The notes under the pieces: model-generated
What the model was told of the DNA's origin: nothing
Database searches by the model: none
Seen by the model: only the letters and a program-made list of their open reading frames with translations
Source of the DNA: Deltaproteobacteria bacterium
GTDB lineage: Bacteria > Myxococcota_A > Polyangia > HGW-17 > SLPX01
Length of the DNA stretch: 64,000 bases
Direction of reading: 5' to 3'
Assembly: GCA_021162935.1 (NCBI GenBank)
Contig: JAGGXR010000052.1
Span: 56,631 to 120,630, forward strand
Made by a program: the position numbers and the translations under genes
In this document: in pieces, positions 5,250 to 60,901 of the stretch
Position numbering within the stretch: position 1 is the first letter of the stretch
Layout: each line of letters begins with the position of its first letter

Positions 5250-5874
5250 GATCGTTTCTCCCTCGGCCGACTGGCCAGGCCCTCTCGTCCCTGCCGACGA
5301 GCCTTCGAAACAATGGACCACCCGATACCAACTGCGCCCCGCACGCATCGTCCCTATTTGTATGTCGGTTCGGCGGATGGTGGAAGCAGAATTTCTTCAG
5401 ACGAACGCCATGCTACTCCGTCCGGACCCGAGCAAGGACACACAACTTCTGTTTTCGAGGGATCCGAACATTCGTTCACCGACAACGGGTACCGATACTT
5501 CGCCGTGGTCACCAACATGGACGGCGACGGCACCCAGATTATCCGCTGGCATTGGGCCAAACACGGCAGCACCGAAAACGGCCACGAAGTCGCAAAAAAT
5601 CAACTTGGCGCCGCCGTGCTGCCACGAGCAGATTCTGTTTACCCGATTACCCGACAACCCGACGATTGAGGGCCAATACCGGTCTTGCGAACCATCTCTT
5701 GGTGATCTAGTCTTCGGCTCGTCTTCGACTCGGTCATTGGCATCGATCTCGGCCAAAAGACCGATAGGAAGACCTCGTCGGAAACGGACAGGCCAACGCG
5801 GCAAAAAAGCCACTGCAACGCCACGCGGACATGCAACAGCACACTCAGAAAACGCAGAAAATGGTGAACCTACA

Positions 5875-20377: not shown

Positions 20378-20569
20378 CCAAGAGGCCCCGAGTCTTTAAA
20401 CTTTGCTCTAAACTTTGGCAGAAATGCCGGAAAGACTGGACATGTGCCGGAAAGCCCAAAAGAAACAAAATGGATCCGCTCATCAGGCGAAAAATGGTTT
20501 TTTGTCCCAAAAAGCGCGCAAAATGGCCAAAAAAGCGCTTTTGGTGGCTTCCAACCTGTTGGTTTTGCC

Positions 20570-20598
20570 TTGACAGTGCAAAGCATGGTCCTTAGACT
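20570..20598 (+). promoter_or_regulatory. Sigma-70-type promoter for the HU gene (TTGACA - 17 nt - TAGACT)
   Basis: ttgaca (20570-20575), a 17-nt spacer, then tagact (20593-20598), ~100 nt upstream of the HU start. The RBS AAGGAGGG lies 8 nt before the ATG at 20701. Confidence 0.55.
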
Positions 20599-20700
20599 GC
20601 TCTGTGATGTAGGCCACAAGGGCTCAATCGGGCGCTGGATGCGCCTTTGCGGGACGTAGACAGCGCTGTAGTCAGTACCAACAAAAGGAGGGTAGTACTC

Positions 20701-21006
20701 ATGACGAAAGCTGACTTGATCGACCTGGTACACAAAACTCGCGGGGCCGACCTGACCAAGAAGCAGGTGACCGAAATCGTCGACGGCGTGTTCAAGGAAA
20801 TGGGCGATTACTTCGTCAAGGCACGCGTCACCAAGAACGCCACCCCGAAGCTCACGTATCCCGGCTTCGGCACCTTCACTAAGAAGAAGCGCAATCGCCG
20901 TAAGGGACGCAATCCTCAGACCGGCGCCGAGATGGTCATTCCCGCTTCGACGAGCGTGACGTTCTCCCCTGGCTCTGAAATGAAGCGCCGCCTGAACAAG
21001 AAATAG
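20701..21006 (+). CDS. hup: HU/IHF-family nucleoid-associated DNA-binding protein
   Basis: [38 protein letters not shown]…[45 protein letters not shown], with the beta-arm signature of the HU family. Confidence 0.9.
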
Positions 21007-21037
21007 GCGAACGCACCGTACTCCAACTCATTTGCAA

Positions 21038-21100
21038 GAAGCGCATCTGATTCCCGCATGGGAACTCGCGATGCGCTTTTTGCTTTTTTGGTCTTTCCCC
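21038..21100 (+). terminator. Rho-independent terminator after the HU gene
   Basis: Stem gaagcgcatc…gatgcgctt followed by tttgcttttttgg. Confidence 0.7.
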
Positions 21101-21262
21101 CCCTCGCGCAATTCCTGGTGACCGTCTTCCTGCCACGAAGCGGCCATCAATTCTGTCTGTTTCACTTGCATAAGGGCTGTTTTTCCTTCAAAACAGCCTT
21201 CTACTGTGTATGATGACAGGCTAACTTCGTGTGAAACAAACTCTATTTCCAAAAGAGCGTTC

Positions 21263-24200
21263 ATGGAACGGTACGGTCGATTCATCTACAAACATGCCTT
21301 TGGAATCGTGGTTGCATTCCTCGCGATATCCGCGGCGACCATTTGGATTGGAGTCAACCCTGGCTCCGAAGACGACGTCCTGCGTTTTCTGCCCAAATCG
21401 AACCCTCAGGTCGGATTCTTCTATGACGTGAATCAAAAATTCGGCGCCCTCCACGTCGCCATGGTCGGAATCGAAGCCAAGGATGTGTTCACGAAGGAAT
21501 TCATCACGCGCCTCGGACGAACGACCCAATACCTTCAAGACGAAGTCAAAGGTGTCCACCGGGTGCTGAGCCTGACCAGTGTGGCGGACTTCAGCCTCAT
21601 CAAGGGAAAAGAAGGGGGGCTGCAAACCGGCCAACTCATCGACACGCAACACCTCCCCAAAACGCAGGAAGGCTGGAAGGTGCTCCGTACGAGAGTCATG
21701 TCCAAGCGACACATCGTCGGCCAATTCGTCAATCGGTCGGGAACCGCCGCGGTCATCTTGTGCTTCCTGTCGCCCAAGGGCAACGTGAACAACATCGTCC
21801 AACGAGTCAAGAAGGCGGTGCGAAAAAACTTTCCCAGCTCCAAGATCTATTGGGGGGGCACGCCCTTCATATCGTCCTATATTTTCGCCGTGACGGAAAG
21901 GGACCTGCGGCGGCTGACCCCGTGGGCAGTGGCGGTCATCGTGGTCATCACACTCCTCGTCTTCCGGGACCCGGTGGGCGTGCTGCTCGCATTCGTGGCC
22001 ACCATCTTCGGCGGCCTCGTCGCCTTCTCCGCCATGAAGCTCACTGGCGAAAAACTGAACTTGGTCTTGGGGTCCATGCCGGTCATCCTATTCGCCGTGG
22101 GAAGTGCCTACGGCATTCATTATTTGGTGCGCTACTACCACCTTCGCAAGGACCACTCCACCGAGGCAGCCGTGGCAGGAGCCTTCCGCGAAGTCGGCCC
22201 GGCGATCCTGGCGGCTGGACTGACCACCATGGCCGGCTTCCTCTCCTTCCTCGCCATGGACGTGGACCCCATGCGCAAATTTGGCATCTTCACGGCCCTG
22301 GGGATCGGGGCGGCCCTGCTCGCAGCACTTGCCGTGGTGCCCGCCATCCTCGCTTTGACGGGGCGCACCAGGAAGGAAGTCGATGCGGATAGTTGGCTCA
22401 AACACGCCATGGGGTCCGGATCCGCCTGGGCACAACAACACCGATGGCTCGTGATCCTCATCCTCGTAAGCGGTGGCACCGTTGGCTTCTACTATTCCCT
22501 TCGGGTCAAGCTGGCCGTCGAGACATCGTCCTTCTTCACAAAAGGAAGTGAGCCGGACCTGGCCGACCACTTCTTTCACGACCAATTCGGCGGATCCATC
22601 TACACGCAGCTCTACATCAAGGCCGACCTAGACGACCCCACCGTGCTGCGGGAGATTCGACGCATCTCGGAGATCATCGAGAAACAGAAACTGGTGTCCA
22701 CGGTCCAAAGCGTGGCCATTCCATACAGCCTGGTCAACGAGGCCATGGTGGAGCTGCACCGCATCCCGGACCAACGCAAGCAGGTGCAGACCCTGGCCTC
22801 CTACGTGCTGTCGGATCCCTCGTCGCGGCAGCTCATGACCATGAACCGTAAGGAAGCCCTCGTGCACATCAAGGTGACCACGAGTGAGGCGGAACGGATC
22901 AACCGCTTCATCGCGACGGTTCGCCGCATTCTGAAGAAGGAAGTCGCTCCGTTCTACGTGGCAGTGAATCTGACGGCATCCACACCCGTCAAAGAGAAGC
23001 GAATTGCGGAAAAGGCGCTGGCAGCGCAGACAACAGACCATCTGTTGGCCATCTTGTTGCGATCGGGCGTGACCCTGCCGGCTGAGGCAAGGACGAACCT
23101 GGCCCGAAACCTCAATCGTGCGCTCGCACAGGGCCGCTTCCATGCGACGAAGGCCGATGTCGAGACCGTGGCCAACAAAGTGCGCCGCTATCTCCGGTCG
23201 AAGGAGTGCGTGCTCGCTCTGCCTGCCCCAGGCCCCAAAGGCGATCCGGCCAAGGCCCTGGCGGCTGCCTTGGCGAACCTTGGCCCCGCGGCCAAGGACG
23301 ATGCCAAAGACGATGCAGGCGCCAAGGCCCTGGCGGGCGTGGTGTCCAAGGAGGATGCTTTGACTCTGGTGGCCACAGCGGACCCATACTTGGCGGATGC
23401 ATGGAAACTCCAGGAAAGCAAGAGCCTGGTCCATGCGGCCCTCCAATCCGTGGGCCTGACCCGGTCACGAATCTCCAAAACCGTGCAGAAACAGATCCGC
23501 GTGGCCCTGCTCGATCTCAAAGTACGCCGGGTCGCCGTTCCTGGATCGGTGGCGACCAAGGCCGGCATCATCGGCGAAAAAATTCCCATGCACGTGGTCC
23601 TGACGGGCATGCCTGTCCTCTACCAGGGCATGTCGAAATCGGTCCAGGCAAACCAGATCAAGAGCCTGATCATCTCAGGCATCCTGGTGCTCCTCGTGAT
23701 CGGGCTCGTCTTTCGGTCGGTACGAGCTGCCCTGGTGGGCATCCTGCCCGCAGGCATGACCCTCATGATGCTCTTCGGCTTCATGGGCTTCAAAGGTCTG
23801 TATCTGGATATGAGCACCTCGATGATTGCCTCCATCGCCCTAGGGACCGGCATCGACTATGCCATCCATTATCTCGTCTGGTGGAGGCGACATGCGAGGG
23901 CATCAGCAGGGAAACCGGTTGCCGCGGCCCTCCAGGACGCTTCGGTGGGCGCATCCCATGAGGCCGGCACCGCCATCCTGGCAAACGCGTTGATGGTGGC
24001 GGCTGCTTTCCTCATGCTCACCATGGGAGACGCAGCCCCGCTCAAGACTTTTGGGGCGATGACCGCCACCGCCATGCTCGGAGCGGCCGTTGCCACGTTC
24101 CTGGCCGTACCGGCCCTGGCAGGAAGCGATCTGATCCGTCACTGGGCATGGGTGGGACTCGATCGAAAAACAATATCCGGACATGACGACCACGGAAACG

Positions 24201-33886: not shown

Positions 33887-36370
33887 TCACCCTGCATTCA
33901 GACTCTCGACCGCTGCCTCGACCCCTTCGATCAGGGCCTGCTTGAGCAGGGGACTGGGCAGGCGCAAAATGCCAGCCGGCAATTCCGATGCAGCCTCACT
34001 ATCCAGGCCGCCAAGCAACACCTTGGCTTCCGGGTTTCGGCTCAAGACCCCTTCGACGAAACTCCGATAGTCAGAAAGGTCCGTGCTGGCCACCACCACG
34101 TCCACGTCATCCTGCAGGGTCTCAAAAGCACTCATGGCATCCTGAGAGCTTCCGGCTCCCACGACGGCGTAGCCTTTTTCCCTCAGCCAGCCCACGGATC
34201 GCTGTCTGGCGTCCTCGTCCGCATCCGCCACCAGGACCCACTTCCGCTCCACGGTCAGGTCCTCGACTTCATCGTTGTCCACGAGGGGCATGTGCAGGGT
34301 CCTGACAACCCGTTCACCCGAATCCTCTCGAACGAATGACTCCCCTTCCGAGAAGGGCAGATACACGATGAATCGACTGCCGACTCCGATACGACTGTCC
34401 ACCTCCACCCATCCTCGATGCTGTTCCACGATCCCATACACGGTGGACAGTCCGAGCCCGGTGCCCTTGCCGGCCTCCTTGGTCGTGTAGAAGGGCTCGA
34501 AAATGTGTTTCACGTTCTCGGGGTCGATGCCCTCGCCCGAGTCCTCCACCACCAAAACGGCGAACTCACCGACCCTGGCCTGAATGACCCGGTCCGCATG
34601 ATCGTCATCCACGTCGCGACGCCCCACCACGATACGCACCGAACCGCCCCCCGGCATGGCATCCCGCGCATTCAGCACGAGATTCAAGATCACCTGTTCA
34701 ATCTGGCCGCGGTCCGCAGAGACGGACAACCCTGGTTCTTCGACGTCCACCTGCACCTGCACCTGGTCGCCCACGAGTCGCGTCATGAGGCCCATCAAGC
34801 CATCGACCACGTCGTCCAGATCCAGCTCGGACGTCGTCATGGCCTGTCGGCGGCTGAACGCTAAAAGCTGCCGCGTCAGCTTCGCCGCCCGCTCGGCATC
34901 CTCCTGAATGCCGCCGATCGCCTTTCGTACTCCGGAATCCTCGATCCGACCGGGCCGAAGCAGCAATTCACAATAGCCCAGGATCCCGGTCATCACGTTG
35001 TTGAAATCATGGGCCACACCTCCGGCCAGCCTCCCAACCACCTCGATCGTGTGGAGCCGTTGGAGATGCTGCTGCGTCTTCTTGAGGGCCTCGGCAGCCT
35101 GTTTCCTCTGGGAAATGTCCCGAGCCATCACGCAGGCCACCTGCTTTTCGCCATATTCGACCAAACTCGTGGACACGTCCACGTCCAGGAAGGACCCATC
35201 CCGTCGCCGGTATCGCCGCTCCCCCACGAAGGACGAATGAGCACGAACCGCCAGGTCCAATTCGTCCTGGTCCGCATCCGAATCGACCACCACGAAATCA
35301 TCCAAGCTCAGGTCCGACAGGTCATCACTGTCGTACCCCAGCATGCGACGCCAGGTCTGATTGGCCTCCAAAATCTGATGCGATTCCAAATCCACCAAAA
35401 AGATCCCATCGGCACTCTGGGTCACGACCGCGCGATACTTCTCCTCACTGAGTTTGAGCGCCCGCTCGGCTGCCTCCTCTTCGGTCACATCTCGCACAAT
35501 GCCGAAGGCCCCGGAAAACTCCCCGCTCTCATCCATCCAGGGAGTCGCCGTGACCTGGAGTCTGCGAACTTCTCCATTGGGGCGACAGACCGTGATCCGG
35601 TAGGTCGACCGTTCCCCGTGGCGTCTCTTTTCCGTCTCTTGCTTCAGCCGATCGAAGTCTTCCTTCTCGACGAAATCATCCAGACAACGCCCCTGCAGTT
35701 CATTCACCGACACGCCGAACATCTCGGCGGTGATCCGATTGCACAGCAACACCTTCTCATCGGGTCCCACCAGCGCGAGCCCCTCACCCTGCCGCTCGAT
35801 GAGCGCCCGATAACGCTCATCGATCTGGTCGAGCGCCTGCTCGGCCCGTTTCTGCTCGGTGATGTCCTCGACGCTGCCCTCGAAAACCATGGGCTGCCCC
35901 GACACTCCGAAAACGACACGACAGGTCTCACGTACCCACAGAATCGAGCCATCACGACGCCGCAGGCGGACCTCGTGCTCACGAATGATGCCTCTTTGAA
36001 GCAACAGCTCCTTCCAGCGTCGGCGGTCATCGACGTCCCAATAGAACTGATCGGACCGAGCGCCCACCAGGGCCTCCGCTCGATCCCAGCCCAGCATGTC
36101 CGCCAACGTCTGATTGACCCCGACGAATCGCCCATCCACCGTACTGCGATACAGCCCGATGGGCAGGTTCTGAAAGAAGTCCCGGTACATCAGCTCCGAA
36201 GGCAACCACCCACGGCGCTGCAGCCCTTCGTGGATCCGCCCCACGGAATGCTTGATCGCCGTTGCCCACTTCTTGCGAGCCCCCGTCCATGTCCCCTCTT
36301 CGGACCGCTGCGTCGAATCATACCCCCCCTTTTCCTTCGACGCCGGTTTCTTTCCGTTCTTCTCCGTCAT
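33887..36370 (-). CDS. Multi-PAS hybrid sensor histidine kinase / response regulator
   Basis: At least four PAS-like modules, an H-box …HDFNNVMTGILGYCELLL…, an HATPase_c region (…VLNLVLNARDAMP…GTGLGLSTVYGIV…), and a C-terminal REC domain (…VLVADADEDARQRSVGWLREKGYAVVGAGSSQDAMSAF…). Start is placed at ATG 36370, which has a GGAG Shine-Dalgarno; the track ORF starts at 36421. Confidence 0.85.
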   Translation of the reverse strand: MTEKNGKKPASKEKGGYDSTQRSEEGTWTGARKKWATAIKHSVGRIHEGLQRRGWLPSELMYRDFFQNLPIGLYRSTVDGRFVGVNQTLADMLGWDRAEALVGARSDQFYWDVDDRRRWKELLLQRGIIREHEVRLRRRDGSILWVRETCRVVFGVSGQPMVFEGSVEDITEQKRAEQALDQIDERYRALIERQGEGLALVGPDEKVLLCNRITAEMFGVSVNELQGRCLDDFVEKEDFDRLKQETEKRRHGERSTYRITVCRPNGEVRRLQVTATPWMDESGEFSGAFGIVRDVTEEEAAERALKLSEEKYRAVVTQSADGIFLVDLESHQILEANQTWRRMLGYDSDDLSDLSLDDFVVVDSDADQDELDLAVRAHSSFVGERRYRRRDGSFLDVDVSTSLVEYGEKQVACVMARDISQRKQAAEALKKTQQHLQRLHTIEVVGRLAGGVAHDFNNVMTGILGYCELLLRPGRIEDSGVRKAIGGIQEDAERAAKLTRQLLAFSRRQAMTTSELDLDDVVDGLMGLMTRLVGDQVQVQVDVEEPGLSVSADRGQIEQVILNLVLNARDAMPGGGSVRIVVGRRDVDDDHADRVIQARVGEFAVLVVEDSGEGIDPENVKHIFEPFYTTKEAGKGTGLGLSTVYGIVEQHRGWVEVDSRIGVGSRFIVYLPFSEGESFVREDSGERVVRTLHMPLVDNDEVEDLTVERKWVLVADADEDARQRSVGWLREKGYAVVGAGSSQDAMSAFETLQDDVDVVVASTDLSDYRSFVEGVLSRNPEAKVLLGGLDSEAASELPAGILRLPSPLLKQALIEGVEAAVESLNAG

Positions 36371-36425: not shown

Positions 36426-38126
36426 CTACGACCCAGAACGACCTTTCAGGTTCCGCAAGAGGGCCTCCACGGATGACCGATCTGCATCTGTTCGCCCCCC
36501 CAGCAAGCGCATGTAGGTTTCCAAAAAACGCTTGGATCGCTGTCGCTCACGCAGCCTCAAAGCCGCCAATCCAGCCCATTTCCATGGCTCCGGCTCATTC
36601 GGCGCACGGCGCGATGCCTTCTTCGCGGCACGAAGCGCCAAAGCTGCATTCTTGTATTGCTTGATGAGGACCGCCGCCAGGAACACGTTGCCGTAGTAGT
36701 TGTTCGGCCGCTGCTTCAGCACCGCCCTGGCCCGCTGTTCCACCGCGCCAAACCGACCTGCAATCAGCAGGGCCCTGGTCCCTTTCAAAACCTTGGGCAG
36801 TCGCCCCTTGCCCACCGCCGCACGTGGTACCGTCCTGCGAACCAAGGGAAGCAACCGGACCGGACGGGCGCCAGCCCTTGCCCTGCTGGGACGGCGAGAC
36901 TTGACCACAGAAGGCACCCATCCGGATCCGCCTCGACTCGCAGCTGCCGGCTTCCTGACACTCAGGCCCAACAGACTCGGCCGGCCTGACCGACCCCGTC
37001 CGCTCTTGCGGACGTGGACCATGGCGGGGAGCCGGGCCTCGACCTGCTTCGCACGAACGAGCAGTTTCGCCGCCTCATCGGGCTTTCCCATGCTCTTGAG
37101 CAACGAAGCTCCGATCCGCAGGGACTTCGCACTCAACCGTCCATCCAAAGCGATATGGAGATGGAAGGCCGCGTCCTCACGTCGCCCCCGGTTCCACAAA
37201 AGAGATGCCAGGTGCATTCGTCCATCGTTGAATCGCTCCACACGCCGCAAGCCGAGCTTGAGCACCATCTGTGCTCCTGCAAGGTCCCCTGCCCTCTCGA
37301 GCACCTCGCTGAGCACCAGATAAGGCAAACCGACCCGAGGCCAGGAGCCCATGGTCTTGCGGAGCATCCGTTCCGCCCGCGCGCGGTCTCCGTTGTCGAG
37401 CACAGACAGCGCTGCAGCAACCGCCTTTCTGACCACAGCCACACCCGACGGCTCCCTGGCTTTCCCGACCGAACTTCGGGGACCTGTCCGCCTCGCCTTC
37501 AGCGCCTTTTCGAGCAGAGCCAGCCGAGTCCCTGCTCTCACAACCCACTGTCTGGCCCAGGATCGTCGCTCCAAGCTCACGTATCGGGACAGAGCCTCGG
37601 CCGCCTTGGCGTCCTTGCCAAGCGCCTGGTAGGACAAACCGAGGCCAAAAAGTGGACTCGGGTCCGTGGGGGCCAACCGAAGCGCCCGACGCGCCGCAAC
37701 AATCGAAGCACCGTGCTTGCCCTGGCCACGCAGGGCCGTGGCCAGGCAGTACCAGTACCACGCCCGTTTCGGATACTTCCTAACCATCTTCGCGTAGAAA
37801 ACCTCGGCCTTGCGATGCTGGTTGAGATGAAAATAGAGAGGCCCGATTCGAACGGCAGCCCACTGGGGGTCGACCGCAGCCACCCTCTCGTAGGCCCGAA
37901 CGGCGCGAGAAAAATCCTGTTTGAGCAGGGCTGCTTTGGCTTCCTGTTTCCAATTTTGGACGGGAGGAACTTTCGCAGCAGAACGCGCACGTTCATGCTT
38001 GGGCGCATCTGCAGCCAAGGCGGACGTCGGGCCCGTCGCCATCACCCACGCCGCGACGACGAACCAAACGGCACAGGATGTCACCTGTCGATTGAACCTC
38101 ATTCTGCTCCATCCATGCACCTTCAT
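36426..38126 (-). CDS. Secreted tetratricopeptide-repeat (TPR) protein, co-operonic with the hybrid kinase
   Basis: Signal peptide (…VVAAWVMATGPTSALAADA) and multiple TPR-like helices (…AVRAYERVAAVDPQWAAV…, …WYCLATALRGQGKHGASIVAARRALRLAPTDPSPLFGLGLSYQALG…). Its stop lies 5 bp from the kinase ORF. Confidence 0.75.
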   Translation of the reverse strand: MKVHGWSRMRFNRQVTSCAVWFVVAAWVMATGPTSALAADAPKHERARSAAKVPPVQNWKQEAKAALLKQDFSRAVRAYERVAAVDPQWAAVRIGPLYFHLNQHRKAEVFYAKMVRKYPKRAWYWYCLATALRGQGKHGASIVAARRALRLAPTDPSPLFGLGLSYQALGKDAKAAEALSRYVSLERRSWARQWVVRAGTRLALLEKALKARRTGPRSSVGKAREPSGVAVVRKAVAAALSVLDNGDRARAERMLRKTMGSWPRVGLPYLVLSEVLERAGDLAGAQMVLKLGLRRVERFNDGRMHLASLLWNRGRREDAAFHLHIALDGRLSAKSLRIGASLLKSMGKPDEAAKLLVRAKQVEARLPAMVHVRKSGRGRSGRPSLLGLSVRKPAAASRGGSGWVPSVVKSRRPSRARAGARPVRLLPLVRRTVPRAAVGKGRLPKVLKGTRALLIAGRFGAVEQRARAVLKQRPNNYYGNVFLAAVLIKQYKNAALALRAAKKASRRAPNEPEPWKWAGLAALRLRERQRSKRFLETYMRLLGGRTDADRSSVEALLRNLKGRSGS

Positions 38127-40348: not shown

Positions 40349-42072
40349 TCCCACCCGAAGACAGGCGTACCGACTCCCCAGAGACTCGAGCCGAACCGAC
40401 CCGCCCGCCGATTCTTGGTTTCCGTCGGGTCCTGAGAACCTATCACGTGGGTCTCCTGGTGCTGGCAAGCTACCTGCTGACACGGTTCCTTGCTCGTTTC
40501 GCCAAACCCACCCGGGCGGTGGGAATGTGGCAAAAGGCGCACGAACGAAACGCCCGTCGCATCCACCGGGCTATCTTGGATCTCCAAGGGTTGTTCATCA
40601 AAGTCGGACAACTCATCAGCATCCTGGCCAACGTCCTACCCGAAGGATTTCGTTCGCGACTGGAAAGCCTGCAGGACCGGGTTCCCCCGCATCCCTACGA
40701 AGACGTGGAACGCCGCATCCTGGAAGAATTCGGCCAGAAGCCCGATGCCATCTTCACCGAATTCGACCGCACCCCCCTTGCCGCCGCGTCCATCGGCCAG
40801 GTGCACAAGGCACGCCTCGAAGACGGAACCCTCGTGGCCGTCAAAATTCAGTATCCGGAAATCGACCACGTGGCGCGAGGAGACCTCAAGTTCCTGCGCA
40901 GGCTCGTGGGCTGGATGGAACGGATCTTCCCGGAACATGGCTTTCCTGCCGTGTACAACGAAATTCGGGCTATGGTCCTGGCGGAACTCGACTTCCGCCA
41001 GGAAGCGGACAACCTGACACGCATCGCCAAAAACCTGACCGAAGAACCAAACGTGGCATTCCCGGTGGTCATCGAACGGCTCACCACCAAGACCGTCCTG
41101 ACCACCACGTTCCAGGACGGCTTCAAGGTCTCCGATCACCAGGCGCTCGACGAGGCCGGTATCGACCGGACCAAACTCGCCAAACAGATCATCCATGCCT
41201 ACTGCGAACAAATCTTCGTGCACGGCCTCTACCATGCGGACCCCCATCCGGGAAACCTGATCGTCCGACCCAACGACGATGGCTCCCAAACCGTCGTCTT
41301 TCTAGACTTCGGCGCCGTGGCGACCATCTCCCAAAACATGAAGGAAGGCATCGTCTCCCTCATCATGGGCGCACTCGCCCACGACTCGACGAAAGTCGCG
41401 TCCGCCCTGAAGACCATGGGGTTCATGGCCCGATCAGCCGACCCGGAAACCTATCACCGCATCATCGACTTTTTCCATCGGAAGCTGCATCAGGAAATCC
41501 GGGTGGAAAGTTTCAGTTTCAAGGACATCACGTTCAATCGGGAACGAGGTCTCGAAGACCTCGCGGATCTGAGGAGCATGGATATCACGCTCCAGGACCT
41601 CGCCCGCCAGTTTCACGTTCCCAAGGAATGGATCCTACTCGAACGCACTCTGCTGCTGCTCACGGGCCTATGCACCGAATTGGATCCGAACCTGAACCCA
41701 TCATCGGTGGTTCTGCCTTATGTGAAGCAGAGCGTTCTCGGCGAAAAAGACACCACGACCTTCATGCTCGAAGCGGCCAAGGAGGTCGTTCTGTCCCTGG
41801 CGGCCCTGCCTGGAGAACTGCGTCAGGCCATTGCAATGCTCGAACAGGGCAAGATTTCCATGCGGTTCTCGAACCTGGAACGAAACGTCCAGGACATCCA
41901 GACCCTGGGCAGACAGTTTCTCTTCGGATTTCTCGGCCTGTCCGCCGCAGCCTTCTCCCTCGCCTTCGAGGACCGGGGCATGCACGAACAGTTCGTCTGG
42001 TCCCTGTGGCTCTCGGGTGGGTTCTTCGGCATCATGCTCGTGTCCATCCTCGGCTCCTGGCGCAGACGATAG
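40345..42072 (+). CDS. ABC1/UbiB-family atypical protein kinase
   Basis: …FDRTPLAAASIGQVHKARLEDGTLVAVKIQYPEI…HADPHPGNLIV…FLDFGAV… are the conserved ABC1 kinase blocks. The GTG start overlaps the upstream stop (GTGA at 40345-40348). There are C-terminal TM helices. Confidence 0.8.
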   Translation: MIPPEDRRTDSPETRAEPTRPPILGFRRVLRTYHVGLLVLASYLLTRFLARFAKPTRAVGMWQKAHERNARRIHRAILDLQGLFIKVGQLISILANVLPEGFRSRLESLQDRVPPHPYEDVERRILEEFGQKPDAIFTEFDRTPLAAASIGQVHKARLEDGTLVAVKIQYPEIDHVARGDLKFLRRLVGWMERIFPEHGFPAVYNEIRAMVLAELDFRQEADNLTRIAKNLTEEPNVAFPVVIERLTTKTVLTTTFQDGFKVSDHQALDEAGIDRTKLAKQIIHAYCEQIFVHGLYHADPHPGNLIVRPNDDGSQTVVFLDFGAVATISQNMKEGIVSLIMGALAHDSTKVASALKTMGFMARSADPETYHRIIDFFHRKLHQEIRVESFSFKDITFNRERGLEDLADLRSMDITLQDLARQFHVPKEWILLERTLLLLTGLCTELDPNLNPSSVVLPYVKQSVLGEKDTTTFMLEAAKEVVLSLAALPGELRQAIAMLEQGKISMRFSNLERNVQDIQTLGRQFLFGFLGLSAAAFSLAFEDRGMHEQFVWSLWLSGGFFGIMLVSILGSWRRR

Positions 42073-52223: not shown

Positions 52224-54008
52224 ATGCAGAACAAAGCCACAGACTCCCGAACGCTTCACGGACGGCAAACCGTTCGATGGCAGGGACCGGCGGGGATCCT
52301 CTTGGCCTGCCTGGCCACCGTCCTTGGCGGCTGCCCCGCTGGACCAACCTACCAAAGGCCGACCCCGACCTGCACGACCGCCACCGACTGTCCGAACCAC
52401 CAGGTCTGCTCCTTGGACGGATACTGCTATGAACAGATTCCTTCGGACATGAAAATCGCCGTGGAATTGGTCCCCAAGCAGACGGTCAAAGACGGGGGCG
52501 ATACCCTCGTCCAGGTCGAGTTTCCCCCGGCCACGGTCACGCCCGACACAGACGGCACCGTCACGATGGTCTACCCCGACCCGATCCAACTCACAGGATC
52601 CGTCACGGTGACAGCCACAGCCATCAAACAATTCGATTTTGTGTCCTTCGAAGCAAAGGTCACACTCTGGCGCCCATCCCGCATCCCGGGTCGGCCCAGG
52701 GTCTCCTACACGGCCACCTTGGGCTTCGATGTGGCGAATCCGACGACAAGCCCCGACCAGAACGTCTCGTTCCAGATTGCGGTCCCACCTGGAACCGGGT
52801 ACTCAGCCCGCATCAGCCCCCTGGGCTACTTCGAAGACGTGTTTCCACCGATGCTCCTAACGGGACTCTCGCTCGCCAAGGATGGCCAACTCTCGGTCAC
52901 GTTCGGACAACAAAACCAATTCCGTGAAGTAACCGGCCAGGCCGTCGATGCCATGGGACAACCCACCGCGGGCGTTCTCGCGTATCTCGTGGACGCAGAC
53001 GGCAACAGGGTCTCGACCCAAAGCGCCCCAACATCGACCAATGGACGGTTCTCCTTCACCACAACAAACAAGTCAGGCACCTTCACCTTGATCCTGGAAT
53101 CGGCGACCGAAGACACGGTGATCCCCAAACTCTCCTTCCCTGTGGAACTGCTCATGGAGGACGAATCCGAAACCGAACTGGGAATCTTCTCCTACCCCGT
53201 GCTGCGAACCCCCTGTCAGTATCGATATCGTGTGATGGGTGCATCTCCATCGGGCACCCAGGAATCCGTGGCAGGCGCCATCGCACGATTCCAGACTGAT
53301 ATCACCATGGAACAGGGCCAGGCCACCTACGAAACTATGGCCACGGCGGACACCAACGGAACCCTGACCGCAAAACTCTTTCCAGGAACGAGCACGGAAA
53401 GCATCACCTATAAGGTCACCATCCTGCCCCCTGTCGATTCTCCTTATGGGCTCTCAAGCAAGGACCTCGAAGTCTCCCAATGCAGCGGAGTGGGGCCCGA
53501 TCTCGTGCTAGAACCTCGAATCTCCATCACCGGCACCGTATACTCCGATCTGGGCGGCACCACCCCGAACGTGCAGGTCAACGCCCGTCCCAGTCTCGAT
53601 ATCTCTCCGGAACTCGCCGTTTTTCTCGACTCACAGGGATACTCCATCTCCACGACGACCTCGTCCGACGGTCAGTTCAATCTCAACCTCGACCCAGGAA
53701 CCTATGACCTGGAACTCACTCCGCCCAAGGGCGCCCATCTCCCAAAGTGGATCGTCACCAACCTGAATGTGGACAGTGGCAACGCCCCCCACTCCATGAA
53801 TGTCACCATCCCGACGCCCACGATCTTCATGGGTCGGGTGGTCACCTCGACATCCAAGCCCCTGCACGATATGTCGGTTCGCGTGTATCTCGTCAAAGAC
53901 GAATGTTCAGGCTCTCGAGACGACTGCACGGACCAGACCGCGTACCTCCTGGGCCAGTCCGACCTGGACCAAGACGGCTTCTTCCAGGTCCTCCTGCCTC
54001 GCCCCTGA
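52224..54008 (+). CDS. Large lipoprotein with repeated beta-sandwich (carboxypeptidase-regulatory / Ig-like) modules
   Basis: Lipobox …LLACLATVLGGC. Thr/Ser/Gly-rich repeated ~80-aa modules (…GTVTMVYPDPIQLTGSVTVT…, …ITGTVYSDLGG…, …GTYDLELTPPKGAHL…, …FMGRVVTSTSKPLHDMSVRVYL…). Confidence 0.5.
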   Translation: MQNKATDSRTLHGRQTVRWQGPAGILLACLATVLGGCPAGPTYQRPTPTCTTATDCPNHQVCSLDGYCYEQIPSDMKIAVELVPKQTVKDGGDTLVQVEFPPATVTPDTDGTVTMVYPDPIQLTGSVTVTATAIKQFDFVSFEAKVTLWRPSRIPGRPRVSYTATLGFDVANPTTSPDQNVSFQIAVPPGTGYSARISPLGYFEDVFPPMLLTGLSLAKDGQLSVTFGQQNQFREVTGQAVDAMGQPTAGVLAYLVDADGNRVSTQSAPTSTNGRFSFTTTNKSGTFTLILESATEDTVIPKLSFPVELLMEDESETELGIFSYPVLRTPCQYRYRVMGASPSGTQESVAGAIARFQTDITMEQGQATYETMATADTNGTLTAKLFPGTSTESITYKVTILPPVDSPYGLSSKDLEVSQCSGVGPDLVLEPRISITGTVYSDLGGTTPNVQVNARPSLDISPELAVFLDSQGYSISTTTSSDGQFNLNLDPGTYDLELTPPKGAHLPKWIVTNLNVDSGNAPHSMNVTIPTPTIFMGRVVTSTSKPLHDMSVRVYLVKDECSGSRDDCTDQTAYLLGQSDLDQDGFFQVLLPRP

Positions 54009-54115
54009 TACCAGTCCTCCGTCCGGCCCCCAGCCTAGGAGGCTGGTCAGAATAAATCTGCCATCTGGAACGCCGCTCCATCCCTCCTGGCTTTGTCCCT
54101 CCTCAGTTGCGTACT

Positions 54116-54610
54116 CTACTCCACGTATTCTTCCAGCTCGTCCGAGTCCTCGTGGCTGCGCATTTTCATCAAGCCTCTCACTTCGAGCTGCCGGATTCGC
54201 TCTCGGGTCAGATTCAGAATCTCGCCCACCTCTTCGAGTGTGACCCCGCCGCGTTCCGCAACGTCCAGCGCGCAGGTCTCCTCCAGCTCCCACACATCCA
54301 AATCCGGGAAGTTCAACTTGATCGCTCCGGATTCCTTCACATCCAAGTACAGGTGGTACTTGCAGCTCACAAAGGGACAGGGCCGCAGACCGTGCCGGCA
54401 CTCGCTCCGAGTCGTGGGCTTCTCGTACTCGAAATCCTTGAGTTCCTCCTTGCGTCGGATCTCCTCCCTGGTCAGACGCCGCAGCGCTATCGTCCTGGAA
54501 CGGGCCCTCGTCCGCTTCCGGCTGCGCGTCAATTTTCGAGTAACAGTACCCTGCTCGCTGTTGCTTTGCCTCTTCATGGCCTGACTCCCTGCTTCGTGGT
54601 GAGACATCAA
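54116..54610 (-). CDS. Sigma-70 region-4-like HTH DNA-binding protein with basic N-terminus and Cys3His motif
   Basis: …[30 protein letters not shown] is a sigma-70 region-4.2-like HTH. Upstream of it is [17 protein letters not shown] (C-x7-C-x4-C-x2-H). Start overlaps the stop of the upstream gene (ATGA). Confidence 0.55.
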
Positions 54611-55161
54611 AAAAAGCGGCGCGAGGCCCGTGCCGCATACAACTCATCCTCATCCGACGCCGCCGCTGGCCTCGTTTCCACGAGCCTCTTCTCGACCCCC
54701 TCCAACCGGCGGATCAGCTCCTTGGCGGTCTTTCGTGCGTCCCGTAATTCGCGCGAGGCACTCTTCTTCGTCCCCGAATCGAATCTGGGGCCGTTCAATT
54801 CCTTCCCAAACTCCCCAAACAGGTCCTCCAACGACCGCTCAACATCGTCGATCCGACCGCGGAACCGCATGACCCCCCTTTGAATCTCCTCGATCGTGTA
54901 GCCCTCCTCCATCAGCACCCGAATACTCCAGACCCGCTCCAAAATCCGATGCGGATAGATACCCTTGGACCCCTTGTGTCGGCCCTTCTGTCCCACCCGA
55001 CGGCTCCTGGGCAACAAGCCGAGCTGAACGTACTTTCGGAAGGTGGACTCACTGACTTTGATGCCGTGATCCTTGAAGAATCGAATGACCTGCTGCGATG
55101 TCAAACCGTCAGGATTCAGTTCGACGATCTTCTGGAAATCTCTTTGAATTGAAGGTGTCAC
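54607..55161 (-). CDS. MerR-like HTH DNA-binding protein (hypothetical regulator)
   Basis: …[32 protein letters not shown]… resembles the MerR-family N-terminal HTH. GTG start with an AGAGGTGAT Shine-Dalgarno. It is preceded by a 400-bp AT-rich leader. Confidence 0.45.
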
Positions 55162-55210
55162 GATTCATCACCTCTGCGTTGCAATCGTACAGTCTCTACC
55201 CACTGTCTGC

Positions 55211-55233
55211 ATCTGATAACCTTATTATCAGAT
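55211..55233. promoter_or_regulatory. Perfect 9-bp inverted repeat (ATCTGATAA-N5-TTATCAGAT), candidate operator in the AT-rich leader of the 55161-54116 operon
   Basis: atctgataa ccttA ttatcagat, read directly, ~50 bp upstream of the GTG start on the minus strand. It overlaps TATAAT-like sequences (gataat). Confidence 0.5.
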
Positions 55234-55571
55234 GAATCTACTCAATGTTTGTCTCGAATATATTCCACTTAGTATATTCTCCACAAGGTTTTCTTCCCCT
55301 CGTATTTCCATCAACACCTGAACAGATGTCCTGGGTCTACGACATCTTGGGGCGCTCCGTCCCTAGACGCCCAACGAAGAGTGTTCCTCCCCACCAAAAT
55401 AAAATTGCTGTCTTGCAGTGAAAAAGTTGGATCAACGGGTGCAAAGCACCTTACTTGGGGTCGAAAAGTCGGATCAAAGGCTCACAAGGATGCCCGTATC
55501 TCGGCCATATATGCGCATTTCCGGACATCCTGCAAATATTTTACGATCTGACGCGGATCAGTTTTGCTGGC

Positions 55572-56078
55572 TCAGGAGTGCTCCAAACCATCCACAGGAG
55601 CGGCGGAGGGCTCATCGTTCTGCTGTGAAATCAAGGTCTTGACGCGGTCGAGCACACCGTTCACAAACGCAGCGGAACGATCCTGGCCGTACCGTCCGGC
55701 CAAGGAAACCGCCTCATCCATCACCACTGCAACGGGAACGCCCTGCTCGTACAGCAGCTCGTAGGCCCCCATCCGAAGGATGTTCAGGTCGATGGCCGCC
55801 ATCCGGGCCGTTCTCCACTCCGAGGATGCCTCCTCGATGACTTCATCCAACTCTTCGATGTGCTCCAGAATTCCGGCCACGAGGTGCTCCGTGTAGCGGT
55901 GGTCTTCTTTGGTTTGCCGCGTCTCGGCATCCGGATCGTCCAAATCGGGAAAATGACGACGAACGAGTTCCAGCGAGGAAGGTTCGCCCGTTCCGCCCAG
56001 GTGTCCAGCGAAAAGCATCTGGAGCGCTCTCTGCCTCGCTCTCGTCCTGCTGGATACGGACGTTCCCATAGGGTTCAC
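55572..56078 (-). CDS. nusB: Transcription antitermination factor NusB
   Basis: …[15 protein letters not shown]… N-terminus matches the E. coli NusB start …RRRARECAVQALY…, and …[17 protein letters not shown]…AAFVNGVLD… follows. It comes after ribH, the conserved order. Confidence 0.85.
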
Positions 56079-57815: not shown

Positions 57816-58472
57816 CTATTGGGCCCCAAAGCCGAATCGACTTAGGGTTTCTCTATCGACTCCTGAAGATGAGTCTGCTGTGCCCCGCTCCCCCACCAAT
57901 CCTTCCACGTACTTTGCAATGACGTCCGCTTCGATGTTCACCTCGCGCCCCACGTCCAGGCGTTCCAGGGTCGTGGCCTTCAAAGTGTGTGGCACGAGGC
58001 TGACGGTGAAACTGGTCGCCGTGACACCCGCCACGGTCAGGCTCACCCCATCGACGGCGACCGACCCCTTTTCCACGATGTAGCGACGCAATGAGGCAGG
58101 CACCTCGACCTCGACCAGGACCGCCGGGCCCACGCGCCGTCCCGAACGAACACGGCCCACCCCATCCACGTGCCCCTGCACGAGATGGCCGTCGATCCGG
58201 TCTCCGACCCGCAATGGTCGCTCCAGGTTCACGCGCCCACCGACGGGCAGCCTCCCGAGCACCGTGCGGGACAGGGTCTCCGAGACGACCTCCAGGCTGA
58301 CGCGCCCATGGGTGACGTCCACTGCCGTCAGGCAGACACCGTTCACGGCGAGGCTGTCTCCGACCTTCATGGTCTCTTCGGCCAGAACGGTCGAAAGGGT
58401 CAAGGTGGCGAAGTCTCCCGCCCGACTCAGGGACAAAACCTGACCCACGTCTTGGATCAACCCGGTAAACAT
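57816..58472 (-). CDS. ribE: Riboflavin synthase (alpha subunit)
   Basis: [10 protein letters not shown]… with duplicated lumazine-binding halves (…[13 protein letters not shown]… and …[12 protein letters not shown]…). Confidence 0.85.
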
Positions 58473-58644
58473 GACACGTTCCATCTCATCGAAATGGCCT
58501 CGCCCGGCACGTCGTTCAACAAAACGCCTTACCGCGACGCTCGTCCTTCACGGACGACACGAGCCCGAAACTCGCTCAGCTTGTACCATCGGTACCGCGA
58601 CCACGCAAGGCCGACAGGCCGGTCCGATTTCCCAAAGCGGTCTG

Positions 58645-59781
58645 TCACTCTGCATCGTCCCACCTGGGCACCCCTTGTATCACCACGTCTCTGCCGAAAC
58701 GACGCACTTCCACCTCGTCCAGGTCCCTTGCCTCCTGCATGTTCTCGGCCCCGAGACCGCCGATGGCGGGCTTCGCATCCTGGCCTCCAATCACGCGAGG
58801 CGCCACGGCCACGATCAAACGATCCACGAGGCGCGCGTCCCAAAAAGCACCATGGACCGAAGCCCCGCCCTCCACGAGGAGACGAAGCACGTCTTCCTCC
58901 CCCAATTTCCGGGTCAACGCATCGAGGTCCACCTTGCCGTTCCGCCCAGGCAGACGCCACACTTCCGCCCCCAAACCCTCGACTGCAGCCACCCTGCTCT
59001 GGGCAACCTCGTCGGTCGTGGCGACCACCACGCGGGGAACACCATCGTCCGATCGCCGAAACAATCGAGCATCGGCTGGCAGGTCCAACGAACCACTCAA
59101 CACGACCCGCATGGGGTCGCGTCCGCCCCGCCTGCGACAGGTCAATCTCGGATCGTCGGTCCGAACCGTACCGGCTCCCACCAGCACGGCGTCACATTGA
59201 TCTCTGAGACGATGCGCCTCGGCCAGGAATTTTGGGCCCGAGATCCAACTACTGTGACCGGTTTTGGTGGCAATGCGCCCGTCGATGGACATGGCGATCT
59301 TCGACGTCACGTGACATCGCCCCTCGGTGATCCTTCGGGCAAAGCCCTCGATCACCCTGATGCACCGGCCCTCGGCCACGCCCGAGACCACTTCGATCCC
59401 GGCGTCCCGCAGCCGACGCAGGCCCCGGCCGGAAACCTGTGGATTCGGGTCCTGAGTGCCCACAACCACGCGTCGGATCCCCGAAGCAATGATGGCTCTC
59501 GTACAAGGAGGCGTCCGCCCTTGATGGTCACAGGGTTCGAGGGTCACGAAGAGTTCGGCGTCCCTGGCCCGCTCGCCCGCTTGCCTGAGTGCCAGCACCT
59601 CGGCATGGGGCTCTCCTGCCCGATGATGATATCCACGTCCAAGAATCTCGTCGCCACGCACCACGAGGGCACCGACGGGAGGATTTGGGCTCGTCCTGCC
59701 CAGGCCACGGCGGGCGAGCCTCAACGCCTCCATCATCAGACGTTGATCCCGAAGAGCCTGTTGCGACTGCCTACCAGCCAT
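58645..59781 (-). CDS. ribD: Bifunctional diaminohydroxyphosphoribosylaminopyrimidine deaminase / 5-amino-6-(5-phosphoribosylamino)uracil reductase
   Basis: Deaminase zinc motifs HAEV…LEPCDHQGRTPPC, plus a C-terminal reductase domain (…ISGPKFLAEAHRLRDQCDAVLVGAGTV…). Start at Met 59781 (MAGRQSQ…). Confidence 0.85.
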   Translation of the reverse strand: MAGRQSQQALRDQRLMMEALRLARRGLGRTSPNPPVGALVVRGDEILGRGYHHRAGEPHAEVLALRQAGERARDAELFVTLEPCDHQGRTPPCTRAIIASGIRRVVVGTQDPNPQVSGRGLRRLRDAGIEVVSGVAEGRCIRVIEGFARRITEGRCHVTSKIAMSIDGRIATKTGHSSWISGPKFLAEAHRLRDQCDAVLVGAGTVRTDDPRLTCRRRGGRDPMRVVLSGSLDLPADARLFRRSDDGVPRVVVATTDEVAQSRVAAVEGLGAEVWRLPGRNGKVDLDALTRKLGEEDVLRLLVEGGASVHGAFWDARLVDRLIVAVAPRVIGGQDAKPAIGGLGAENMQEARDLDEVEVRRFGRDVVIQGVPRWDDAE

Positions 59782-59824
59782 GCTGCTCCTCGCATGCCCT
59801 GTCACCCGACGCGATTGGGCGAGG

Positions 59825-60298
59825 CTATGGCTGCCCCGGGCCTTCTCGCCTGGCCAGCAGAGCCTCGAGTTCGTTGACGAATTGCGTGACATCTCGAAAA
59901 GACCGATACACAGAGGCGAAGCGCACGTACGCCACCTCGTCCATGTCCCGCAAGCGCTCCATGATCCGTTCCCCGAGGAACACCGCCGTTACTTCGCGAT
60001 CGCCGGCCTCGGCAACCTCTCGGGCCACCTCGTCCACCAGTTCCTCGATCTCGGTGACGGACACGGGACGCTTCTGGAAGGCCTTCTTCAGGCCATCAAC
60101 GATCTTCTCGCGCAGAAACGGCTCCCGACGGCCATCCTTTTTGATGACCATGGGCATCTGCTCCTCGATGCGTTCATAAGTCGTGAATCGCCTGCCACAG
60201 GCCAGGCACTCGCGACGGCGACGAATGGCCGCGCCGTTCTTGCTCAGTCTGGAATCGATGACCTTGTCCTGCAGGTCACCGCATGCGGGACATTTCAT
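59825..60298 (-). CDS. nrdR: Transcriptional repressor NrdR
   Basis: MKCPACGD…[12 protein letters not shown] zinc ribbon plus an ATP-cone (…[11 protein letters not shown]…). Confidence 0.9.
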
Positions 60299-60445
60299 GG
60301 ATCGTACTCACTCTCTGTGGACGAACCTTCCGCCGCAGGCCTTCGGCCGACTCAGGGCACCTGGTCCACCGCGGGCGTTCGTCATCGTGGAAAACATTCG
60401 CCAGAGGCACCCTACGAGAAACGTAGGGGTCGCGGGAAGGGCGCG

Positions 60446-60901
60446 TCACGGAAGCGACCCGCATTCGGCCGCGGCGATCAGATCGAGCCGCCGCTGGTGA
60501 CGACCGCCCTCGAATTCGGTTTCCAGGAAGGCCGACAAGGTGGACCAGCCCAGTTCTGGCCCGACCACCCGGCCTCCCATGCACAGCACATTGGCGTCGT
60601 TGTGCCGTCTGGCCATGGTGGAACTGTAGGGTTCACTGCAGACCGTGGCTCGAATGCCCGGCACCTTGTTCGCGGCAACGGACATGCCCAGACCGGTTCC
60701 ACAGATCAGCAGGCCAAGAGCGTTCGGGTCCGCCACGATCCGCTTGGCCACTTCGAATGCATATGTGGGATAGTCCACGGAGCGTTCGGTCTCGACTCCG
60801 ACGTCTTCGACGTCCCAGCCATCTTCACGCAACCGCGCCACGAGCGCCGCTTTGAGGGCATAGCCTCCGTGGTCGCTTCCTGCAATCACCTTGCGTTTCA
60901 T
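60446..60901 (-). CDS. rpiB: Ribose-5-phosphate isomerase B
   Basis: MKRKVIAGSDHGGYALK…ICGTGLGMSVAANKVPGIRA…. Confidence 0.85.
   Translation of the reverse strand: MKRKVIAGSDHGGYALKAALVARLREDGWDVEDVGVETERSVDYPTYAFEVAKRIVADPNALGLLICGTGLGMSVAANKVPGIRATVCSEPYSSTMARRHNDANVLCMGGRVVGPELGWSTLSAFLETEFEGGRHQRRLDLIAAAECGSLP

Follow-up and report, generated by a model that had tools for sequence, protein, structure and literature searches.

Transcription factors of the MerR family (MerR, CueR, SoxR, BmrR) have an N-terminal MerR_1 winged helix-turn-helix (HTH) domain, a single coiled-coil helix and a C-terminal effector or metal-binding domain, and the promoter spacer typical of MerR-type activation is 19-20 nucleotides (nt). 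In BldC of Streptomyces and RacA of Bacillus subtilis, a MerR-like DNA-binding domain occurs with no ligand domain attached; BldC occupies direct repeats in a head-to-tail arrangement, and RacA, which carries a long coiled coil, binds many origin-proximal GC-rich sites. In the SigO-RsoA system of B. subtilis, sigma functions are split over adjacent small genes, one of which has domain 4. The WhiB-like proteins, especially WhiB7, are small Cys4 proteins that are functionally tied to sigma domain 4 and bear a basic DNA-binding tail. Here we describe an uncharacterised operon combining a MerR-like regulator with a sigma-domain-4 HTH protein. It consists of two small genes, ORF1 and ORF2, in a 64,000-nt stretch of contig JAGGXR010000052.1 from a Deltaproteobacteria bacterium (hereafter the window, to whose positions all coordinates refer). 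In the reading to which we give about even credence, the two genes encode transcription factors and form a chromosomal operon that is typical of Myxococcota, inherited vertically, autoregulated by ORF1 and perhaps open to an SOS input. The two genes and the gap between them are:

54607..55161, minus strand: ORF1, 184 amino acids (aa), GTG start (ORF list, Pfam MerR_1)
54578..54606, minus strand: ORF1-ORF2 spacer of 29 nt, holding the GGGAG Shine-Dalgarno sequence of ORF2
54116..54577, minus strand: ORF2, 153 aa, conserved ATG start (database protein P0001 is 100% identical and has the same start)

Both small same-strand genes, noted in a preliminary description of this DNA, are present in the ORF list; they are conserved and have thousands of homologues, and the two family alignments show mean column identities of 57% and 52%. 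A Shine-Dalgarno sequence, GAGGTGA (55168-55174), stands 6 nt before the GTG of ORF1. The longest reading of ORF2 begins at TTG 54610; P0001 and all relatives begin at the ATG at 54577, which sits 29 nt past the ORF1 stop and has its own GGGAG 7 nt upstream. The ATGA overlap proposed earlier is an artefact that arose because the longest ORF had been taken as ORF2, and translational coupling by overlap is not supported. ORF1-ORF2 junctions compared in 8 loci have gaps of 21-70 nt, each with a Shine-Dalgarno sequence and the conserved ATG, and several have TAA or TAG stops. In another assembly of the same species (locus L003, 5035-5971) one leader base differs and ORF1 is called as 129 aa, not 184 aa; this short call may be an assembly or strain variant.

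The pair lies downstream of a ribE-ribBA-ribH-nusB cluster and is convergent with a secreted CarboxypepD_reg-like gene. The order in the window's clade is nusB, long spacer, ORF1, ORF2, and the synteny around the pair is preserved within that clade. The GC content at third codon positions is 0.72 in ORF1 and 0.77 in ORF2, with 0.69-0.74 in the neighbouring housekeeping genes. Since this composition equals that of the neighbours, the window copy is not marked as foreign; the foreign origin once considered for it is not supported by this comparison with the flanking genes, by the preserved synteny or by the presence of the pair across Myxococcota. The ORF2 family taken as a whole is common to chromosomes and (pro)phages.

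At least 592 species-level genomes carry an ORF2-type gene; almost every one bears the label Myxococcota or 'Deltaproteobacteria', and the groups represented include Polyangia, Nannocystales, Kofleriaceae, Haliangium and Bradymonadia. When loci were reached through ORF1, ORF2 was directly downstream in 56 of the 57 informative independent loci; when they were reached through ORF2, an ORF1 homologue was directly upstream in 56 of 86. Thus ORF1 essentially never occurs without ORF2, and ORF2 can be alone. The remaining ORF2 loci are solo, belong mostly to one clade and are often directly upstream of purH. No ORF1-ORF2 fusion was present among the long relatives, and a homology search seeded with a copy from a 'Myxococcaceae' metagenome-assembled genome gave no cultured Myxococcus orthologue and no MXAN locus-tag link. 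At least 136 IMG/VR viral contigs also carry ORF2-type genes. The phage context is clear in L172, where the gene lies between head-tail adaptor/neck genes and a tail sheath gene, and the copies in L174 and L189 adjoin integrases. ORF1 was absent from all 80 viral loci examined, and clustering the neighbours of the viral ORF2 copies revealed no recurrent partner. The prophage-like contig L174 further encodes, at 5159-5536, a 125-aa protein with what appears by eye to be a LexA-type N-terminal domain (LTVRQREVLTFIEGFIATHGYPP); its gene is ~650 nt downstream of the ORF2-like gene and adjoins an integrase.

ORF1 has 1580 homologues. Pfam MerR_1 matches it just above the cut-off (23.9 bits vs 21.6) and matches 32 of 32 aligned family members (best E 2.6e-7), in agreement with the MerR-like gene of the preliminary description. 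The AF2 model is confident (pLDDT 83.4) and has the winged-HTH topology helix-helix-beta-beta-helix-helix; the modelled monomer runs from an N-terminal helix through a MerR-like HTH, a wing and a two-helix unit to two long helices. The winged HTH covers about residues 20-97, the long helices residues 101-122 and 129-161, and the C-terminal tail ends in RFF. The second HTH helix and the wing are almost invariant across the family. Residues E38, F41-Q46, L49-R52, G57, K59, G60 and H62 are invariant; among them F41-Q46 form the putative recognition helix, whose invariance parallels that of the dyad bases described below. Sequence and model together mark ORF1 as a predicted MerR-type winged-helix DNA-binding protein.

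Like MerR, CueR, SoxR and BmrR, ORF1 has the N-terminal MerR_1 winged HTH followed by long helices; unlike them, it lacks a C-terminal effector or metal-binding domain. No effector domain was found by Pfam or NCBIfam, and beyond MerR_1 only coiled-coil families match. The protein has no Cys at all and no conserved His in its C-terminal half. It also differs in its extra N-terminal helix, in an enlarged invariant basic wing and, in the AF2 monomer model, in a helical hairpin that replaces the single coiled-coil helix; its Pfam score is, as said, barely over the cut-off. The structure searches yielded coiled-coil or helical-bundle proteins and, beyond these, only winged-helix matches that were not significant; the best Foldseek match was a MerR-like N-domain at E 0.27. 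RacA is similar to ORF1 in length. Neither BldC nor RacA scored in the NCBIfam scan of ORF1, and the candidate site of ORF1, unlike theirs, is a single AT-rich dyad within the promoter of ORF1 itself. Two conserved tails are seen at the C-termini of the family (alignment A2, columns 201-230): most Polyangia-type members end in ...RAARARAFSSGASGGAGDLL, and those of the window's clade in R/K-F/Y-F. Either tail might be a docking or degradation signal.

In ORF2, an Arg-rich N-terminus leads into a Cys4His module, after which comes a sigma-70 region 4.2 HTH; its family alignment comprises 29 sequences. The two mapped parts are:

54263..54418, minus strand: Cys-rich module of ORF2, residues ~54-105, with C60, C67, C72, H75 and C102
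54158..54247, minus strand: region 4.2 HTH of ORF2, residues 111-140, recognition helix N122-L-T-R-E-R-I-R-Q130

Sigma70_r4 matches ORF2 over profile positions 20-49 of 50 only (E 5e-10) and matches 29 of 29 family members. No match to sigma regions 2 and 3 was obtained, and Sigma70_r2 is absent by Pfam from all 29; a complete sigma factor was rejected on this ground, and the earlier reading of ORF2 as a region 4.2 HTH without other sigma regions stands. NCBIfam sigma models match over their last 30-45 positions only, far under their cut-offs. With the family profile, residues ~112-150 align to RpoD/SigA domain 4 structures in the PDB (E ~1e-9), including that of T. maritima. The recognition helix TRERIRQ is identical to that of RpoD; TLEEVG ahead of it and an acidic/aromatic tail at the C-terminus are shared too, and the columns of the region 4.2 HTH are invariant in the ORF2 alignment. 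Structural work has placed in this helix of sigma domain 4 the residues that read the -35 element. Because its helix equals that of the primary sigma factor, ORF2 is predicted to bind -35-like DNA or to take the place of sigma domain 4 on RNA polymerase. It differs from RpoD/SigA in having no regions 1-3 and no detectably similar region 4.1, and in the Arg-rich stretch and Cys4His module that precede its HTH; without regions 1-3 it cannot be a sigma factor alone.

The module follows the pattern C-x6-C-x4-C-x2-H, with a fourth invariant Cys (C102) 26 residues past the His. The preliminary description had recognised this Cys/His motif, giving the first spacing as x7 and overlooking the fourth Cys. 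All four Cys are invariant in 88 of 88 chromosomal and 80 of 80 viral copies, and the His is retained in 87 of 88 and 76 of 80, respectively. The module is covered by no Pfam or NCBIfam model; as sole query it retrieved 4653 cluster representatives at E <= 1e-3, and it was N-terminal to an HTH in every relative inspected (11 long ones and the 29 aligned). We infer a metal- or cluster-binding site, which would serve as structural zinc or as a sensor. The module is unlike that of WhiB-like proteins in its spacing (C-x6-C-x4-C ... x29-C vs C-x(14-22)-C-x2-C-x5-C), in lacking the G[VI]WGG turn and any Pfam Whib match, in being joined to domain 4 in the same polypeptide and in coming from another phylum.

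Several other identities were considered for ORF2 and rejected. A CCCH zinc finger, C-x(4-15)-C-x(4-6)-C-x3-H, disagrees with the last spacing of x2, the fourth Cys and the absence of a zf-CCCH match. A ZAS anti-sigma factor disagrees with the motif, which is not H-x3-C-x2-C, and no anti-sigma Pfam model matches; the partner-switch or anti-sigma role raised earlier found no specific support in these searches. An anti-phage defence or MZA protein was set aside because only the last 42 residues match MzaA, through the common region 4, and scans against PHROGs and PADLOC likewise hit the shared region 4 only. HthA/HthB of M. xanthus (MXAN_6889/6890) was considered as a possible identity of ORF2, since HthA is a small regulator of development, has an HTH at its C-terminus after a novel N-terminus, and is co-transcribed with a second small gene. 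HthA is listed in the LuxR family (PMC2129111), and gene order and partner differ as well, so this identity, compared by description only, was also rejected.

The control region of the operon contains the following elements.

55281..55286, minus strand: predicted -35 element TTGTGG (family consensus TTGAnn after a T- or A-tract; 73-locus profile)
55257..55262, minus strand: predicted -10 element TATATT (family consensus TACATT; 18-nt spacer)
55264..55276, minus strand: O1, promoter-spacer dyad TATACTAAGTGGA, 2 mismatches to TCYAYT-S-ARTRGA
55237..55249, minus strand: O2, second degenerate dyad AACATTGAGTAGA, 27 nt from O1, over the predicted start
55162..55250, minus strand: predicted 5' untranslated region (5'UTR) of ~89 nt with the Shine-Dalgarno sequence, counted from the predicted start
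55318..55333, minus strand: local CTR-N7-GTTCAG box CAGGACATCTGTTCAG, centre ~ -75

In the upstream alignment of the closest relatives, conservation is limited to the promoter-proximal ~170 nt. The consensus over 73 loci reads CTG-N8-GTTCAGT, ~31 nt, a T-tract, TTGAnn, nGAn, TCYAYT-S-ARTRGA, a, TACATT. TTGAnn and TACATT, 18 nt apart, would be the -35 and -10 elements of a sigma-70-type promoter, with transcription predicted to start at ~55250. Among ORF1 loci, the promoter/operator profile has matches in 38 of 62 and 49 of 61, in each case immediately upstream of the gene; the 30 solo-ORF2 loci and the 80 viral loci gave no match. The exact 13-nt dyad is found in 74 of 171 loci, once in nearly all and twice in three, and where ORF1 was mapped it falls in the promoter block directly upstream. 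Exact matches number ~78 in ~1 Mb, vs ~0.5 expected by our estimate. The invariant bases of the dyad are symmetric. O2 is a conserved block in the clade alignment, and L091 carries two exact copies with the same 27-nt spacing as O1 and O2 of the window.

A conserved 13-bp dyad between the predicted -35 and -10 recalls the geometry of the MerR family; the 18-nt spacer does not. Given this spacer and a second site at the start, MerR-type activation, in which the DNA is distorted, would fit less well than simple repression. The ATG or GTG of ORF1 lies 6-16 nt past the -10 in many Polyangia-type loci, so many relatives' mRNAs would be leaderless or nearly so, unlike those of the window's clade with their predicted ~89-nt leader and Shine-Dalgarno sequence. 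Rfam found no RNA family in the leader, either over the whole window or in a permissive scan of 54000-55700, and the fold of the whole leader has a z of -1.75.

Of 138 ORF1 loci, 83 have the box upstream of the promoter, CTR-N7-GTTCAG, in one or the other orientation and no more than 500 nt before ORF1; its preferred distances from the dyad are 35, 56 or 64 nt, and ~85 of its 99 occurrences in 1 Mb are upstream of ORF1. It shares a CT(R) left end, a Y-GTTCAG right half and its overall length with the experimentally defined LexA (SOS) box of M. xanthus, CTRHAMRYBYGTTCAGS (PMC9705874). Its conservation is asymmetric, CTG on the left and TGTTCAG on the right, as in that SOS box, to whose consensus the window copy CAGGACATCTGTTCAGG has 2 mismatches. 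The full palindrome GAAC-N4-GTTC was rejected as the family consensus, as it holds in the window's own clade only. The collected related DNA contained no recA or lexA locus for an SOS-box comparison, and M. xanthus itself was absent among the loci found. On motif resemblance, the box is possibly a second input, responding to DNA damage or SOS.

Gene reality, domain content, linkage statistics, and the conservation and placement of the motifs are established directly; binding partners, transcription start and physiological role enter the following model at the level of prediction. Transcription would proceed from the sigma-70-type promoter (-35 at 55286-55281, -10 at 55262-55257) and start at ~55250. 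ORF1 would dimerise, probably via its long helices, and the dimer would most likely bind the promoter-spacer dyad O1 and thereby control its own operon; in the window's clade it would also bind O2 over the start site. LexA or a similar dimer may bind the upstream box and provide a second input, possibly DNA damage. The 29-nt gap and constant adjacency suggest that ORF2 is co-transcribed with ORF1 and translated from its own ribosome-binding site. With its RpoD-like helix, ORF2 would then bind -35-like DNA or replace domain 4 on RNA polymerase, and its phage paralogues make a role in redirecting the polymerase conceivable. Because ORF2 is found without ORF1 in a clade and in phages, the two proteins need not form a complex. 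The two-gene regulatory cassette of the preliminary description is thereby retained with its stated domains, and its autoregulation is plausible; the operator named for it is not retained, as discussed below.

Several observations weigh against this model, one of which concerns a further feature at the end of ORF1.

54620..54637, minus strand: terminator-like hairpin with a T7 run after it, within the ORF1 3' end (consensus scan)

This putative terminator, just before the ORF1 stop, could uncouple ORF1 from ORF2 or attenuate read-through. It is also present in L087, and its T-run encodes the clade-conserved C-terminal Phe-Phe of ORF1. O1 and O2 of the window have two mismatches each, in one half-site. 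Symmetric covariation at the variable Y/R positions of the dyad is weak: without correction for phylogeny, one pair gives p = 0.016 and the other does not reach significance. By our hexamer assignment the spacer is 18 nt, not the 19-20 nt of MerR-type activation. For the SOS input, 71 of 89 family boxes have 1-3 mismatches to the M. xanthus consensus and fit it loosely at the inner positions; unlike the M. xanthus LexA box, the family box is at ~ -55 to -85, upstream of the -35 and not over the core promoter, which is an unusual site for a repressor. The AF2 model of ORF2, made from the 29-sequence alignment, is poor (pLDDT 57.5) and does not give the fold of the Cys module; Foldseek returned one meaningless match with it. 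ORF2 also works alone in a large clade and in phages. Finally, no binding, transcript or phenotype data were found for any member of either family: the literature search found LexA papers and no paper on the ORF1/ORF2 gene family, and characterised members were absent from Pfam, NCBIfam, PHROGs, PADLOC, the PDB and the literature consulted.

The long intergenic stretch upstream of ORF1 contains two repeats that had attracted attention earlier.

55210..55234, no strand assigned: perfect palindrome CATCTGATAA-N5-TTATCAGATG, 10+10 nt
55412..55480, no strand assigned: direct repeat, copies 55412-55438 and 55454-55480, 27 nt at 78% identity, 42-nt period

The AT-rich stretch reported there is borne out: no other 400-nt block of the window has a GC as low as that of 55201-55600 (0.468; the next lowest is 0.507), although the background, put at ~65% GC, measures 0.60 (window mean 0.601). 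The low value reflects nothing more than a long intergenic region. The palindrome exists and is longer than the 9 bp first claimed, and such an inverted repeat arose in 10 of 3000 Markov resamples of the 410-nt region. It is not over the conserved -10, where it had been placed, and lies at ~ +17 to +41 of the predicted transcript. As RNA, the stretch folds into a hairpin with an 11-bp stem (-13.7 kcal/mol, z = -2.98, 0 of 200 shuffles as stable). It may be a lineage-specific 5'UTR stem-loop affecting mRNA stability or translation, a proposal that is compatible with the autoregulated operon and that we regard as tentative and somewhat improbable, as the palindrome is neither conserved nor accompanied by compensatory change, the whole-leader z is -1.75 and the transcription start is itself a prediction. 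The palindrome is degraded in L087, the closest relative, whose ORF1 is 91% identical, and absent in L088-L091; no equivalent hairpin was found in 5 relatives, so that it is specific to this genome. The direct repeat, given before as ~18 bp, also exists in the longer form listed and is not conserved among relatives: it lies in the non-conserved distal spacer, upstream of the promoter, and only its promoter-proximal copy is partly kept in L087. Palindrome and direct repeat may matter locally; from the comparison of relatives they would not be the family's operators.

The phage copies bear on a further alternative, in which ORF2 derives from a phage regulator that was domesticated; by mimicking sigma domain 4 it would redirect or inhibit host RNA polymerase through competition at the -35 or the beta-flap, and ORF1 would be the host's dedicated controller of a potentially toxic ORF2. 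The 136 or more viral contigs with the same Cys4His-sigma4 architecture, some in clear phage modules, the identity of the recognition helix with that of RpoD, and the confinement of ORF1 and the operator to the chromosomal paired form all agree with it. Against it stand a poorly resolved neighbour-joining tree and the existence of solo chromosomal copies without ORF1. We consider this alternative unlikely, while keeping it in view. A more far-reaching version, which we hold to be quite doubtful, would see in the ORF2 family a class of free-standing sigma domain 4 proteins that had escaped recognition, one that is universal across large parts of Myxococcota and disseminated by their phages. In it, the Cys4His site, with zinc or a redox-sensitive Fe-S cluster, would gate the -35-reading helix, and ORF2, competing with sigma domain 4 or standing in for it, would act as a 'sigma-4 decoy' at the -35 or beta-flap that reprogrammes transcription globally; the paired form would be restrained by a MerR-type autoregulator and induced by DNA damage via the LexA-type box.

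Equally doubtful is the idea that the dyad, the GTTCAG box or both serve as sites for a regulator other than ORF1 (LexA or a global factor), with ORF1 being a RacA-type architectural or chromosome-associated protein whose targets lie elsewhere. ORF1 lacks a recognisable effector domain, its C-terminal half matches coiled-coil families only, and the box resembles a LexA site, all of which would suit such a protein; but the dyad is confined to ORF1-encoding loci in ~1 Mb of related DNA, and extra dyads in the 64-kb window are not above chance (8 vs 8.3 expected at 2 mismatches).

The proposal of the preliminary description, that the palindrome at 55210-55234 and the direct repeats are the operator of the MerR-like protein in a horizontally acquired, tightly autoregulated and translationally coupled cassette, we now judge very unlikely. 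The palindrome is perfect and, by the resampling above, unusual for the region, and its place shortly after the predicted start is one from which a repressor could act. But the DNA-reading residues of ORF1 are invariant, and its site should therefore be conserved, as O1 is; the palindrome is not conserved in L087 or in L088-L091, and the conserved cis-elements are O1, O2 and the box. The genes, moreover, do not overlap, composition is native and synteny is conserved. That ORF1 and ORF2 form a split two-subunit sigma-like factor in the manner of SigO-RsoA, with ORF2 giving domain 4, is highly improbable: the genes are adjacent and co-conserved and one is a bare sigma domain 4, but ORF1 is a MerR-type winged helix without Sigma70_r2 similarity, so the partner is not a region-2 protein, and ORF2 also exists alone in a large clade and in phages.

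The main interest of the locus is a free-standing domain 4 with an invariant Cys4His site that is common to a whole phylum and its phages. If the autoregulated-operon reading is true, Myxococcota, known for very large regulatory networks, have a conserved and unstudied transcription-factor pair. Its bare sigma domain 4, which phages carry as well, would be a concrete entry point for studying the ways in which both cells and phages manipulate recognition of the -35 or the beta-flap contact of the polymerase. The cis-map (spacer dyad, start dyad, SOS-like box, leaderless vs long-leader) would then be testable in cultured Enhygromyxa or Haliangium. If it is not true, this is one more conserved small-regulator pair of unknown role.

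Some minor observations concern the spacers and leaders. From the nusB stop to the SOS-like box, ~238 nt (55334-55571) contain neither an ORF nor an Rfam match. Relatives L087-L091 retain a spacer of 400-590 nt but not its distal sequence. On the minus strand, copy A of the direct repeat contains TTGATC-N18-TAAGGT, which is promoter-like by eye. In one subclade of solo ORF2 genes, ORF-free leaders of 400-500 nt (L038 4490-4930, L051 4500-4925, L048 about 4516-5000) open with perfect or near-perfect CTGAAC-N4-GTTCAG palindromes, and in L038 a 9+9 inverted repeat, TTGATGAAT / ATTCATCAA, stands just upstream. Elsewhere in the window, no FMN riboswitch was found even at E <= 1 in the nrdR-ribD-ribE-ribBA-ribH-nusB cluster (~58300-60600), and 20401-21600 is the second-lowest GC stretch (0.51-0.55). 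Other perfect inverted repeats of at least 10 nt with short loops lie at 6066-6090, 35796-35823, 37721-37746 and 40976-41003; together with the palindrome at 55210 and an overlapping register at 40976/40977 they bring the count in the window to 6, vs 0.5 expected in Markov resamples.

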